Virus record (IMG/VR): IMGVR_UViG_3300046314_000658
Source: a virus
Strand: one strand, 5' to 3'
Length of the DNA: 64,000 nt
The position numbers and the translations under genes were made by a program. The notes below the pieces were generated by a model that was not told the DNA's origin, searched no databases, and worked only from the letters and a program-made list of their open reading frames with translations. Below are positions 9,352 to 24,718 of the stretch, in pieces; within the stretch, counting starts at the first letter, position 1; the number at the start of each line of letters is the position of its first letter.

Positions 9352-9789
9352 ATGGATACTACTGCATTGAAACTTGAGACCAAATCGTTTGGTGAACTGG
9401 CCGACCTAATTAAGCAACATCTCAATATTACAGAGTTAGAACTGAATAGACTATACGACATTCGCAAGTTCGAGTGGACTGTTCAGGATCATAACGATAC
9501 TCCTATTCCAATTATTGGACTAATTCGCAAGCATAGTAAAGCAATTGCTTTTGAATTCAGCGATGGTAGTGAAATTATTACTTCCACCCACCACCTATTT
9601 GCCACTGACGATAGGTGCGATGTTACATTTGCTGCAGAGCTAGCGGTTGGTGATAGTATTACCAAAATTAGTGGTGAAAAAGTTACAGTAGTATCAGCAA
9701 CTGCGCTACCAGAGCAAGATGTGTACGACATCCAAGTTAAGTCTCACAAGATGTTGTATCGCGATGCAGCTGGTTTTGTGCACCACAAT
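9352..9789 (+). other. Split intein C-fragment (long, 146 aa; +1 Thr)
   Basis: HHN codons at 9781-9789; Thr codon ACT at 9790. Confidence 0.85.
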
Positions 9790-17995: not shown

Positions 17996-20443
17996 TTAGA
18001 CTGAAGTTAGTTTAATGTAATTTTGAATTTGTTCACAAGCTGCCACATAATCTCGTGTACCATATGAGCTGTGGCGAAGTGCTGTATTAACATATGGCAA
18101 TAGTGGAAATTCCAATACCAGCTGTTTATTAAGGTCTGCAACTTCACGATACGCTGTTGCTGCTACAACACTCGCTTCATTGACCTGCTTTGCAATATCG
18201 TGAAGTTGAGCATCAAGAGGAGCGTGAGAAGAGCGGTCAATTGCATTGAGGGTGTTCACCATCAATTTAATCGCGCTATGGTTAGCGGTCGCGTTAGACT
18301 GTGCGGTCGCGTTACAGACGAATGAGCTTACCAAGCGCTTTAACTCATTAACTGTCTTACTCTTCACAGTATCAATTGTTGAGACGGCACATAGTGCAAC
18401 ATTTTGGTTTCCGTAGTTTGAATGCCACTGCAAATGGTACGCTCCAGCAGTGGCAACCCTTACGGCATTTGCATATACCCACGAGCGGATGAGGGTTTCA
18501 AGATTCTGAGCTTGTTGAATAAAGGTTTTCACTTTTTTTACCCCCATTGCGGATGACTTGATCCCAACTAACAGGATTTTATCCGGACCAACTACTTTGG
18601 TTAGGTAGTTCCACAGTTCGGCAAAGTCGTCGGTAATCTCGTTAAACACAACATCTTTAGCACTATTAGTGTATGTAAACTGAGGCACGCCACGAATTTG
18701 TGGAACAAATACTACGTGTTTATACTTGAGACTTTTAATGTACACATCTAGCTGAGCTTCGTCTACTGTGGTCCACTCATTAAGTGCATACCTGTCTGGG
18801 CACTTTGTACTAGTGATACTAGGATTAAAAACTTTGAATGTATCATCAGCACGTGTGATCGTTGAAGGATTGGTACCCTTCTTCGGAGCGGCAGCTAAGG
18901 TAGAGGCATATACAACAGAAACAAAGCTACCTGGAACATTGAATGCTTCCAACAATTCTGTAACAGCGGTGTTGAATCGAACTGTATCAGCAATCTTAAC
19001 TCCACGTGGGGCTGAGATTGAAAACACCTCACCTTTGTGTGTCGCAGATGCGTTGTTGAGATAGTGAAACTTCAACTTTGACGTTCCGCCTTTCGCTTCA
19101 TCAAGCACAACAAAAGTAATCCTTTCACCTGGAATAGAAAACGACAGATTTGTGTTAATACTCTCGGTAACACTTACAGTTACTGTACCATCTGCAGCCA
19201 CGACACGTCTGGGAGTTGAGATGCGCAGTGGGACTGGCTCCATTTTACGACGCAGATTCGATTGTAGTGACAAATCATGCTTCGCAAGTGCTGATTCTAG
19301 TTTGACAGCATCGGTTGGTACGTATGTACCATCGATCGAGATTTCCTTTCCCTTCCACATCAACTTACCACCAGTCGTGTAGGTAATAATACTGCGCAGA
19401 CGATCACCACGCAGAACACGGCAAAATTTAACCACATCCCACATAGTAGGCAACTCGCTAAACTGGTCCTGAATGTGTTTGCCGATACCTTCACCAATCT
19501 TGACCAACTTATCCAGAATAACAGCGACTGTTTGTTCTGTATACTGCAACTCTTCACGAGACGCGCTGAAATCCAATGACCCGATTGGGAAGGTAATGAT
19601 GATTGGCAGTTCCAACAATTTGGTTATCAGGTTAACCTCTTGTAAGCCTGAGAAGCCTGAGAAACGCTCGCGGAACGCATTAGAAGCAAGTACTGTAGAT
19701 TTTGCGAGTGGGTACGGTACGTTACCTTGGATAGCAAGCGCAGTCGACAGAGGACCCCCTGACTTTGCAACAAACCAGTCAGTTCCACCAAACTCACGCT
19801 CAACATGACGTAGTGTGGTACGACCTTGCAAGCCACCCAATATTTTAGGTGGAGTTGAACCCCAAGTTGTGAAGAATGATTGCACTTTGGAGGTGAACTT
19901 TTCAAAGTCGACCTGTTTTACAGCGAAGTTCACCTCCAGACCAGACGGCTCATCAGAGTCTGAGACATCAAGCAGAGCAATCGATGGGATGCCATCTGCA
20001 GTTTTAAAGGCAGAATACACCAACTTCAGACCAGTGTGCCAGCTCGTAATCGTGTAGTTGCTTGTATATGAGAATGGTGACTTTGAACCAAGCCCCAATG
20101 CACCAACTACATCATTCGATTTAGTTTTCGTACTCTCGAAGAATTTAGTATAGATGCTGTCAATTTGTTCGGCAGACATGCCAGTACCATAATCGCGAAT
20201 CGCAAAAAACGGTTCGAGTTGGTTGGGTAGATGAATGTCGAATGGTTTGTCTGGGTTACCATTAGTGACATGAGAATCTGACGCATTGCACGCCAGTTCA
20301 CGCACCACAGCGAGAATGGGGTCCTTGTACAACATTGATGATAAAATATCAAATGTCTTACCTGTCAACGCAATCGAGTATTGCTTGGATTGCAATCCAC
20401 TACTCATAGTGGTAGCCGTACCTGAGGATGAGAGAGGAATCAT
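17996..20443 (-). CDS. rIIA: rIIA-like protein (GHKL ATPase N-terminus)
   Basis: LYKDPILAVVRELACNASD, IRDYGTGM, GALGLGSKSPF, FSASREEL; adjacent to rIIB. Confidence 0.9.
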   Translation of the reverse strand: MIPLSSSGTATTMSSGLQSKQYSIALTGKTFDILSSMLYKDPILAVVRELACNASDSHVTNGNPDKPFDIHLPNQLEPFFAIRDYGTGMSAEQIDSIYTKFFESTKTKSNDVVGALGLGSKSPFSYTSNYTITSWHTGLKLVYSAFKTADGIPSIALLDVSDSDEPSGLEVNFAVKQVDFEKFTSKVQSFFTTWGSTPPKILGGLQGRTTLRHVEREFGGTDWFVAKSGGPLSTALAIQGNVPYPLAKSTVLASNAFRERFSGFSGLQEVNLITKLLELPIIITFPIGSLDFSASREELQYTEQTVAVILDKLVKIGEGIGKHIQDQFSELPTMWDVVKFCRVLRGDRLRSIITYTTGGKLMWKGKEISIDGTYVPTDAVKLESALAKHDLSLQSNLRRKMEPVPLRISTPRRVVAADGTVTVSVTESINTNLSFSIPGERITFVVLDEAKGGTSKLKFHYLNNASATHKGEVFSISAPRGVKIADTVRFNTAVTELLEAFNVPGSFVSVVYASTLAAAPKKGTNPSTITRADDTFKVFNPSITSTKCPDRYALNEWTTVDEAQLDVYIKSLKYKHVVFVPQIRGVPQFTYTNSAKDVVFNEITDDFAELWNYLTKVVGPDKILLVGIKSSAMGVKKVKTFIQQAQNLETLIRSWVYANAVRVATAGAYHLQWHSNYGNQNVALCAVSTIDTVKSKTVNELKRLVSSFVCNATAQSNATANHSAIKLMVNTLNAIDRSSHAPLDAQLHDIAKQVNEASVVAATAYREVADLNKQLVLEFPLLPYVNTALRHSSYGTRDYVAACEQIQNYIKLTSV

Positions 20444-21571: not shown

Positions 21572-22096
21572 TCAGTCTCCCAGCAAATCTTCATTCCATT
21601 CGCGGTGACCAATTCTGTATGCCATATTACTTTCAGTTTCTCTGACAGAAACTTTATAGCACCAAATTCGAGCAGCTTCTCCACTGCCCCAGTAGTCTGG
21701 AATGAACACTCCGTTGATATATTTGTACAACATATCAGCAATTCCTTCACACCCAAGACGTGGAAGCTCAATTACCTTTGCAATCCCTCGCTTATTTGCT
21801 TCTCGATACCAATCAATTTCAGGATCACTAGAACTAACCAATAGAGTATGATCGAAGTTATTTTGGAGAAACTCCTTCAGGGGGCGCAAAGAGCCGTAGT
21901 CGACGCTCCAGTTCCTACAATCGAGATCATTTGTTCCGAAGTAAAACTTCATCGAGAAGGCATATCCGTGAATCTTATTGCAACCTGGAATGTTACCTGG
22001 TTTATCATCAGCGAGATACTGACGATATGCTACTGGAAACGCGTCAACATATTCTTTGGTTGAGGTGAAGCGATACGTAATTGGTGGATAATCCAT
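21572..22096 (-). CDS. queD: 6-carboxy-tetrahydropterin synthase / PTPS
   Basis: CNKIHGY, VDYGSL, FDHTLLV, VRETESN; T-fold motifs; near folE. Confidence 0.85.
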   Translation of the reverse strand: MDYPPITYRFTSTKEYVDAFPVAYRQYLADDKPGNIPGCNKIHGYAFSMKFYFGTNDLDCRNWSVDYGSLRPLKEFLQNNFDHTLLVSSSDPEIDWYREANKRGIAKVIELPRLGCEGIADMLYKYINGVFIPDYWGSGEAARIWCYKVSVRETESNMAYRIGHREWNEDLLGD

Positions 22097-22110
22097 AATT
22101 TTCCTAAGTT

Positions 22111-22156
22111 CAGCAGCGGAATATTTTACGAGGGAACGATGCTGGTACAGTCCTCA
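22111..22156 (-). ncRNA. Candidate cis-regulatory H-type pseudoknot (preQ1-I-like) in the queD leader
   Basis: P1 UGAGG/CCUCG; P2 CAGCA/UGCUG; A-rich linker UAAAAUA; ends 5 nt before SD AGGA; TAAATA at 22173-22178. Confidence 0.5.
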
Positions 22157-22255
22157 ATGTTTTACAATAGTGTATTTAGATAGTGGTATCAACAGGTCGA
22201 GTTGATTGGTACTATTGGTACTGATCTACGTTGCCATTTAATTTTTAGTATGCGA

Positions 22256-23950
22256 TCAACAATCTGGCAACCATTCATATACACTTGTACCACAGTCCCA
22301 GAATCTATCAAACTTATTCTCTAACATATTCTCGTATAGTGTTTTTTGCTCGTCGAACTTTGGAACAACATCTGCTATATTTGCTTTTGTAAATTTATTA
22401 GGAGAACACAAAAATGGTGTCTTAGATGCTGTGCTAAAATAGTAACCAACTGGTGGAGTAGTGCGAACTAGTTCAAACCCACTTTCCCTCGCATACTGTT
22501 CAGGTAGTCGTCTATCAGTCTGGTGAATAACTTTCACAATGCTATGTTGCTTACAGAAAGATGATATTAACTGTCGCAATAAGCCTGGAACATAAGTGTC
22601 TGTTGCATATGAAAAATTATCAATTCTGACTATATTATTATCAATACCACTCAACGCGAGTGCAGCGATTAACTGCCGATTAACTCGAACTCCATAGAAA
22701 TATTTAGATTGATTAGAAATTCCAGTTATAGCGTTCTCTGTAAAAAACCAATCAGCATCTCTTCTGGATATTGGATATGCAGCACAGTCATTTACGTCAT
22801 ACTTGATTGGAGATAACTCCAATGCACGCTTAATTAAACTCTCAGTTGCAGAACGGTGGTAATACCAATCTGGTTCTAATATTTGGAGCAGTGTGTACCC
22901 ACTTTTCTCACACAATTGGGTTTTTAGTAGATGTTTATTTCTACCAACGTGAGATTCCCGATGCCAATATAACCCGTTGTATTCAATTGCTATGTGTTTA
23001 GTTGGTATTACTATGTCCAATTCATATGGATGTATAAGTGATCGATTGGATACTTCACACGGAACAAGCGAGTTTACAAAATTGGCAATTTCAATTTCAG
23101 CAGATGAGCGGAATTGATCCTTGCGAATTGAGATCCTGTGCTGATTCAAATACTTTAAAACTGTTGTATCCGATACCTCTCCGTGTAACAAGTATGTAGC
23201 GATGTGAGTGGAAGATAATGTTTGATTTGTATACGCATTTGTCATCCACTCAACATTTTCCAATTTCGCCATAACTTCAAGTGATATGTGTCTCTGAGAC
23301 AGCGTTCTACCACCATTTTCTAATCTAGTGTTAGCTTCAATTGCATCCTGTATGTCAACACTTTGAAATGGAAAATCATGACCGTAACGAGATTGTCTTG
23401 TTGCAAGCTGTTTTGCTTTAACATCGGGTAATAATGCAGTAGATGTTACACCGTACTTTTCAAAAGTATTGTCTCGTACTTTCTGTTGAATTTTATCACT
23501 TTGAAATGGAGTTGCAGACCCGTATCGTTCTATACAGGTTGCGTGTTGCTTTGCACGAATAGTAGGAGATAGCCCAGCAGATTTTACCCCATACTTTTTA
23601 ATCATAGTCGCTTCTTTACGCGACTGCGTTTCAGGAGAGGCTTGTGCACACTTACGACCACAAAATGGTTTATACCCCTGCATTCTGCTAGTGAATTTAA
23701 CTGAAAGTTGATTGCAATGCTTACATTTTACAAGTTCGGTGACACCGTGTTCTAATGCATGTATGCGTTGGTCATTGCGTGCATGCGGGCCGAGGAATGC
23801 TGTTCTATCAATGTACGCGACCCACCAATCTGGCAACACTGGATGGTGTCGAGTCCAATGCTCTACAAGTTTTCCATTTATACGCCCGTCTGGTTTAAGA
23901 ATTCCAGAAAGTTTTAAGTGATCCATAAGCTGCTGGTCAGTGAATATCAT
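22256..23950 (-). mobile_element. Free-standing homing endonuclease (T..xxYG repeats plus PD-(D/E)XK domain) between folE and queD
   Basis: TMIKKYGV, TCIERYGS, TFEKYGV repeats; YELDIVIP..IAIEYNGLYWH; C-terminal WDCG. Confidence 0.75.
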
Positions 23951-24019: not shown

Positions 24020-24718
24020 TCAACTTGCTAGTTTATCTCGAGCAATTGCCAGAAATTCTTGTCGAACGTACGGATTATTGACAAACTTGCCACTCATCGC
24101 GCACGTAACAGTATCAGCTGCAGTGTCTTTTGCACCACGTGTTGACATACACAAGTGAGCCATTGAAGCAAACACTGCAACATCATCGGACTTGGTGATA
24201 AACTTTATTGCTTCTAAGATCTGGTGTGTCAATCGTTCCTGCACTTGAGGTCGGGCGGAAAAGAAACTAACAACCCGACTAACTTTTGATAATCCTAACA
24301 CACGCTCGTTGGGAATATAAGCTACTACTACTGCGGGTTTGTTTAAACCACCTGCAGGAATTATACTTAAAAGGTGATGTTCGCACTGAGACACCGCAGA
24401 ACATGCGATGTTTACAAACTCATCAGGCGCCGACATTTTGTTATCTACAGTGGTGCACTTTGGGAAATTATTGTAATCCAAGCCCCACATAAAGTCATTG
24501 ACCCACATTTTACCAACACGATTAGGGGTATCAATCAAACTGTCATCAGTCAAATCTAACCCCAACGCCTCAAGCATTGTTCTTGTAGATGCGGCGATAA
24601 TATCAATTTGCTCTTGTTTAGACAGTTTTTGCTCAATCATTGGAGTCTCGAGCCCTAGTGAAATTAAGTGTTCGTGGACTTGTTTGCCGAGTTCGGGATT
24701 TGCTTTGCTCATTTTCAT
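24020..24718 (-). CDS. folE: GTP cyclohydrolase I
   Basis: DTPNRV, SQCEHHL, GLSKVSR, RPQVQERLT, HLCMSTRG. Confidence 0.92.
   Translation of the reverse strand: MKMSKANPELGKQVHEHLISLGLETPMIEQKLSKQEQIDIIAASTRTMLEALGLDLTDDSLIDTPNRVGKMWVNDFMWGLDYNNFPKCTTVDNKMSAPDEFVNIACSAVSQCEHHLLSIIPAGGLNKPAVVVAYIPNERVLGLSKVSRVVSFFSARPQVQERLTHQILEAIKFITKSDDVAVFASMAHLCMSTRGAKDTAADTVTCAMSGKFVNNPYVRQEFLAIARDKLAS

Follow-up and report, generated by a model that had tools for sequence, protein, structure and literature searches.

A candidate riboswitch family of uncultured phages, built like the class I preQ1 aptamer, in the leaders of queD-like genes

Comparison with phage relatives indicates that the leader of a queD-like gene in an uncultured giant phage from a lake belongs, as a divergent member, to a family of structured cis-regulatory RNAs restricted to phages. 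The virus is known from 64,000 nt of IMG/VR record IMGVR_UViG_3300046314_000658, the whole of which we call the window, and the element lies on its minus strand at 22097-22178. We hold the fold and the family to be real with very little doubt. The motif is probably a small-molecule riboswitch built like the class I preQ1 aptamer, a reading to which we give a probability of roughly 0.6 and in which ligand binding is a prediction. Among the features by which riboswitches are generally recognized, this family has a conserved structured element in the 5′ UTR, covariation, and invariant bases in the junction and loops.

Results

Layout of the leader

A sequence-only reading of the window had written out the mRNA of 22097-22178 as a preQ1-I-like pseudoknot, and its letters match the minus strand one for one. 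From 5′ to 3′ in the transcript, the leader is laid out as follows.

22173-22178, minus strand: TAAATA box, T4-late-promoter-like, read directly; ends 76 nt before the ATG
22152-22156, minus strand: P1 5′ strand UGAGG, pairing with 22129-22133
22145-22151, minus strand: L1 ACUGUAC, which starts with the near-invariant NCU of the family
22137-22144, minus strand: P2 5′ strand CAGCA-U-CG, that is the 5-bp core, the U of a U.C mismatch and a 2-bp extension
22134-22136, minus strand: L2 UUC, in which C22134 is the invariant unpaired C at the P1/P2 junction
22129-22133, minus strand: P1 3′ strand CCUCG, pairing with 22152-22156
22119-22128, minus strand: L3 UAAAAUAUUC, 10 nt, A-rich, with an invariant UC end; family consensus WUAMAAAYUC
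22111-22118, minus strand: P2 3′ strand CG-C-UGCUG, placed by the match to covariance model R1 and the counts of the extension pairs
22144-22140 with 22115-22111, minus strand: P2 core as first drawn, CAGCA with UGCUG, read directly
22102-22105, minus strand: Shine-Dalgarno sequence AGGA, 5 nt after P2 and 5 nt before the AUG, outside P2
22096-22094, minus strand: AUG start codon, read directly

The TAAATA box, a putative promoter, probably marks the start region of the transcript that carries the queD leader, and such a box lies 1-23 nt 5′ of P1 in 70 of 146 distinct relatives. Its spacing had been singled out as unusual, which holds: 76 nt separate it from the start codon here, as against 10-29 nt in 12 of the 21 other cases in the window where a TAAATA box accompanies an open reading frame. 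One identical metatranscriptome contig of 151 nt spans 22118-22268, which is compatible with transcription through the leader, the contig itself giving neither start nor strand nor whether it came from RNA or DNA; a DNA run contained a variant with an identical core and differing flanks.

Covariation, loop conservation and an extended P2

As a lone sequence, the fold of the window is no more than would be expected by chance. The nested minimum free energy of the leader is weaker than that of its shuffles (z +1.6), such folding being blind to pseudoknots, and a loose descriptor of an H-type pseudoknot found 877 matches in the window and 80 related loci; two loose scans by regular expression or descriptor were dropped because most of their matches were due to chance. 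We therefore take the feature as real because it is conserved in relatives, and not from any single-sequence signal.

To represent the family we used a covariance model, R1, built from 68 phage instances with the window left out and with the P2 core alone as its P2 structure. Run with filters off over the whole 64 kb, R1 returned the leader as its sole significant match (22109-22158, minus strand, 24.7 bits, E 4.6e-4), and this leader is the lowest-scoring family member that we saw. The next match in the window (9471-9507, plus strand, 12.3 bits, E 0.36) has some likeness to the motif's 5′ half (AGUGGACU...UCAU); it falls in coding sequence and is most likely due to chance.

Pairing in the relatives far exceeds that of the controls. 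In alignment A3, 95.6% of cells were paired compared with 69.6% after shuffling (none of 500 shuffles reached the native value) and 36-56% in slid controls; the corresponding values were 93.5%, 69.3% and 37-53% in A4, and 96.7%, 79.8% and 31-53% in A5. P1 is paired in 99.6-100% of cases, its middle pair being CG, AU or UA with zero mismatches, while its two junction G-C pairs are near-invariant, with one swap from G-C to C-G (in A4). All pairs of the P2 core vary on both sides among relatives. Furthermore, G.U pairs are frequent in the helices, which suits an RNA of the gene-sense strand only. Covariation among phage queD leaders had been named as a check on the pseudoknot, and the H-type fold proved to be kept, with covariation, across the homologous leaders.

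Loop conservation was assessed in 91 distinct sequences recruited through the protein rather than the motif. L1 begins with NCU in 88 of them, and all 91 have the unpaired C that immediately precedes the P1 3′ strand, mostly with a U before it. In L3, positions 3, 5, 7, 9 and 10 are conserved in 89-91 of the 91, with A at the first three of these positions and then U-C.

The P2 helix of the sequence-only reading was right in its 5-bp core and too short: it runs past a conserved U.C mismatch by two further pairs, formed by UCA of the former L2 with UGC from the end of the former L3. This extension is new here. Among 139 distinct sequences, the inner extension pair is A-U in 121, G-C in 17 and mismatched in 1, and the next is C-G in 137, U-A in 1 and mismatched in 1; the two columns, unpaired in the structure of R1, were 100% paired in the alignment check. 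The window carries the G-C form, which gives it a P2 of 7 bp plus the U.C mismatch, the L2 UUC and an L3 of 10 nt. We had entertained the idea that a G at the end of L3 fills the ligand site by way of the junction C, and this was superseded by the pairing of that G with the C of L2 in the extension. The architecture of the family is then a P1 of 5 bp with an invariant closing G-C, an L1 starting with NCU, a P2 with a core of 4-6 bp followed by U.C and two pairs, an L2 of 2-3 nt ending in the invariant unpaired C, and an A-rich L3 of 10 nt.

Occurrence of the family and its tie to queD-like genes

The QueD-like protein of the window has at least 593 relatives in IMG/VR, the best 80 of which (61-77% identical) were retained. 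Many of these 80 lie on contigs of 100-500 kb from lake metagenomes, and most have an alignable motif directly upstream. R1 matches 56 of these 80 loci, always on the sense strand and directly before the gene, and nothing else in 533 kb reached E 0.1. A second QueD set, seeded differently, gave matches at 70 of 75 loci in the same orientation and position, and its 100 kb likewise contained no further match at that threshold. The motif was also searched for in IMG/VR with a pattern made of the conserved loop bases only and containing nothing from the gene; it returned at least 120 sites, 106 of them with a perfect 5-bp P1. The open reading frame next to the motif is QueD-like in 156 of 162 cases, the exceptions including a canonical CxxxHGH QueD, a 306-aa PTPS-like protein, a cupin and methyltransferases. 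Such a consistent tie to the genes of one metabolic pathway is a general hallmark of riboswitches. Among the loci fetched from IMG/VR, the family comprises well over 200 instances.

Outside viral collections, a search of 185,579 bacterial and archaeal species genomes for a highly specific form of the motif gave a single match. This match (L209, CAZXGO010000106.1, 'uncultured Chitinophagales', 60.6 bits) sits at the end of an 8-kb contig of a metagenome-assembled genome; the contig probably comes from a phage and was binned with bacterial sequence, or else it hints at the host. The motif is almost confined to uncultured phages. The cultured relatives ACP17 and BUDD do not carry it, and Megablast and blastn of the region and two consensus leaders gave no real match among GenBank phages. 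In IMG/VR, an exact 49-nt search found no identical copy, and a search with a window-type pattern added three members and one match probably due to chance; none was a close relative. Neither the window nor 20 relatives nor a short leader had any match in an Rfam 15 cmscan, and literature searches on phage riboswitches of the queD or preQ1-like kind turned up no description of the motif, PMC10516641 being silent on riboswitches.

Genes of the DpdL pathway

Three genes of the window are considered here.

21572-22096, minus strand: QueD/PTPS-like T-fold protein of the CxxxHGY subfamily, 174 aa (Pfam PTPS, 40.8 bits; phrog_2389)
22256-23950, minus strand: homing-endonuclease-like gene, 564 aa (DUF7487; phrog_3339), between folE and queD
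24020-24718, minus strand: GTP cyclohydrolase I (FolE), the first enzyme of the pathway (Pfam and NCBIfam matches)

The homing-endonuclease gene seems to be a mobile element that has inserted between folE and queD, dividing a former pair. Among cultured phages, the nearest relative of the QueD-like protein is gp119 of Acidovorax phage ACP17, with 51% identity, and C39, H43, G44, Y45, D82 and H83 are invariant in the family. The phage 'QueD' has CxxxHGY in place of the QueD signature CxxxHGH, a motif that is invariant in 124 aligned sequences including ACP17 gp119 (L210:9001-9477), and a second zinc-ligand His is seemingly missing; as judged from these residues, this would be an unusual active site for a CPH4 synthase.

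Within the 64 kb of the window, FolE and QueD alone are visible, a search for QueE, DpdL and DpdA3 having given nothing. Of the fetched loci, 80 have FolE near queD, 67 have QueE and 26 have DpdL. Moreover, of 25 large motif-bearing contigs, 23 encode DpdL homologues, among them all eight that are at least 90% complete; no full-length QueC was found in these contigs, only partial weak matches. Five near-complete relatives have no QueC and no TGT detectable with Pfam, and DpdA3 has been reported to be detectable by HHpred only (PMC10516641). From the missing QueC and Pfam TGT we had considered a pterin rather than a deazaguanine pathway, an idea rejected once DpdL was found in the relatives. 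In ACP17, the neighbors of gp119 are FolE, a QueE-like radical SAM protein and gp125, which has the DpdL signature LxxxHRHxF; this signature and the roles of the pathway enzymes are taken from PMC10516641, according to which the DpdL pathway could not be reconstituted in E. coli. Because DpdL is present and QueC absent, the relevant metabolites would be CPH4, CDG and 7-deazaguanine, not preQ1. The sequence-only reading had raised the thought that a ligand other than preQ1 might be sensed, which is in keeping with relatives that lack QueC and bear DpdL.

Two further genes are worth recording. A glycosyltransferase-like gene is tightly linked to DpdL (ACP17 gp124, L210:12192-13220, with homologues in the relatives G001 and G002), which hints at a sugar-decorated deazapurine. 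In addition, the window encodes an RIIA homologue of 815 aa (17996-20443, minus strand; phrog_612, E 7.6e-116), which together with the TAAATA boxes identifies the phage as a T4-like giant phage.

Comparison with preQ1-I and other known RNAs

The closest known counterpart is the preQ1-I riboswitch (RF00522; types I-III, represented by T. tengcongensis, B. subtilis queC and C. antarcticus). Both RNAs are small H-type pseudoknots in the leader of a gene of the queuosine/7-deazaguanine pathway. Several features of preQ1-I recur in the phage motif, as the sequence-only reading had proposed: a 5-bp P1 with a G-C junction pair (PMC8222354, PMC8752633), an unpaired C directly 5′ of the P1 3′ strand, usually after a U as in type I, and an L3 that is rich in A and resembles UUA.CAAA with C/U-U after it. 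The ligand of the T. tengcongensis aptamer forms a pair with C15, is sandwiched between G5-C16 and G11, and is recognized by U6 and A29 (PMC8222354); in type I aptamers, the specificity C tends to follow a U, and the A-run leads into A-C-U (PMC8752633). By analogy of position with C15/C17 of preQ1-I, C22134 is the candidate ligand-pairing base of the window leader.

However, the two RNAs also differ. P2 of preQ1-I has 3-4 bp and a 3′ strand that overlaps the Shine-Dalgarno sequence or feeds a terminator, whereas P2 of the phage motif has 7-9 layers with the conserved U.C, making it two to three times longer, and in the window does not extend to the Shine-Dalgarno sequence. L1 of the motif starts with NCU and has 3-10 nt, whereas preQ1-I has U first in L1 (U6), and the motif has three extra nucleotides (YUC) between the A-run and P2, where in preQ1-I A29/A30 adjoin the P2 3′ strand. 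The U of L1 and the A next to P2 that contact preQ1 are thus not at equivalent places in the motif; their counterparts may be shifted by 2-3 nt. Unlike the setting of preQ1-I, the phage pathway makes no preQ1.

A cmscan against the preQ1 models, RF00522 included, had been suggested and brought no match: RF00522 did not match the leader of the window or that of relative L004 at E 10 or below, had no match at the gathering score (39 bits) in 20 relatives, and in 5 complete relatives reached at best 19 bits, below threshold and away from the queD leader. That best match lies at G003:C1:300817-300857 (L201; E 0.03). The motif seems therefore to be built like preQ1-I and to stand outside that family. 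The preQ1-II and preQ1-III riboswitches (RF01054, RF02680) are likewise pseudoknotted 7-deazaguanine sensors that control translation, but they are far larger and of other topologies, and cmscan found no match to them.

The THF-II riboswitch (folE motif) is a small RNA of GTP cyclohydrolase and pterin genes that recognizes a guanine-like edge; its fold is not a pseudoknot but a hairpin containing an internal loop, and the phage motif has no Rfam match. The leader of T4 gene 32 is also similar in architecture: there too a T4-like phage mRNA begins with an H-type pseudoknot, but this one has no link to a metabolic gene. That pseudoknot is a nucleation site for gp32, serves translational autoregulation and has no metabolite pocket.

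The gene 32 leader is the precedent for what we regard as the least unlikely of the alternatives, that the pseudoknot is an operator at which a phage or host protein would repress or activate the translation of queD. A protein site would account for the conserved loops and covarying stems as well as a ligand pocket would, the phages are T4-like (RIIA in the window, regA in ACP17), and the window has no clear mutually exclusive platform. It counts against such an operator that the motif accompanies three different genes of PTPS/QueD type instead of a single candidate binding protein, no such protein having been identified, and that the junction mirrors a known small-molecule pocket in its closing G-C, unpaired C and A-rich L3.

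Expression platform and direction of control

If the motif is a riboswitch, the relatives suggest how it might act. They have three types of platform. In each, a hairpin covers the Shine-Dalgarno sequence or the AUG, and 1-3 nt of its 5′ arm belong also to the P2 3′ strand; owing to these shared nucleotides, folding of the aptamer would free the ribosome site, as in an ON switch. The window has no hairpin that sequesters its Shine-Dalgarno sequence. There P2 ends 15 nt 5′ of the AUG, which is the shortest, hairpin-free kind of platform, and UUCC of L3 is able to pair with GGAA of the Shine-Dalgarno region, but weakly.

In modelling, the predicted accessibility of the ribosome-binding site rose from 0.44 to 0.60 when the aptamer was blocked, and it was more than 0.1 higher with the aptamer sequestered in 101 of 138 modelled leaders. 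In a shuffle control, however, the native 3′ half of the aptamer masked the ribosome-binding site no better than shuffled sequence did (mean z -0.29; 0.53 in the window compared with 0.57 +/- 0.09). We rejected this modelling as support for an ON switch, as the gain in accessibility is no larger than for shuffled sequence, and in view of that null result the modelling yields no switch mechanism or direction. As for the direction of control, we would give an ON switch about an even chance, with an OFF switch clearly less probable and some other mode the least so.

The same control bears on a second alternative, which we also consider unlikely and place next in order: a constitutive, ligand-independent 5′ pseudoknot, perhaps derived from a riboswitch, that stabilizes the late queD transcript or tunes ribosome loading. 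The masking of the ribosome-binding site by the 3′ half of the aptamer, no better than chance, would agree with such an element, as would its place near the predicted 5′ end of the TAAATA transcript. Yet a stabilizer needs neither invariant single-stranded bases at the junction nor a strict tie to one metabolic gene family, and the other late genes of the window have short leaders without the motif.

A DNA-level promoter or operator sequence as the cause of conservation is very improbable: in a subfamily with a CAUAGG hairpin, 60 of 69 leaders do have a TTTACA-like box, 16-18 bp and TAnnnT (TATAAT in 35), but the window and two other subfamilies keep the motif without that -10 box, and the helices preserve pairing rather than sequence, with G.U pairs that are mismatches on the other strand. 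In this subfamily (L004, L013 and 58 others), a putative sigma-70-type promoter is nested in the leader, the TTTACA-like box lying in L3 and TAnnnT in the loop of the hairpin over the Shine-Dalgarno sequence; its early transcripts would be without the aptamer and the 5′ arm of the hairpin.

Discussion

We return to the small-molecule riboswitch as the preferred reading. On this proposal, a ligand stacked between P1 and P2 would present its guanine-like face to the junction C for pairing, and folding would control the translation of queD and hence the supply of the modified base for phage DNA. As the phages have FolE, QueD, QueE and DpdL and no QueC, 7-deazaguanine or its precursor CDG would be the likeliest ligands; CPH4, guanine and host preQ1 are less likely. 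It would be tempting to see in the motif a new, phage-only riboswitch class for 7-deazaguanine or CDG, with a pocket related to that of preQ1-I, which gates the step catalyzed by QueD in the DpdL/DpdA3 route, the QueC-less pathway by which guanine in phage DNA is replaced. This more specific idea is tentative, and we regard it as somewhat doubtful in its full form.

If true, it would provide the first riboswitch known to control DNA hypermodification. Should the motif bind a ligand, it would illustrate how the smallest known aptamer fold, that of preQ1-I, can be rebuilt for another 7-deazapurine. It would then also serve as a natural sensor of 7-deazaguanine or CDG and give access to the DpdL pathway, of which little is understood. 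If the motif binds a ligand, it would be a riboswitch of viruses, not of cells, in which RNA sensing is tied to the hypermodification of phage DNA, an anti-restriction trait.
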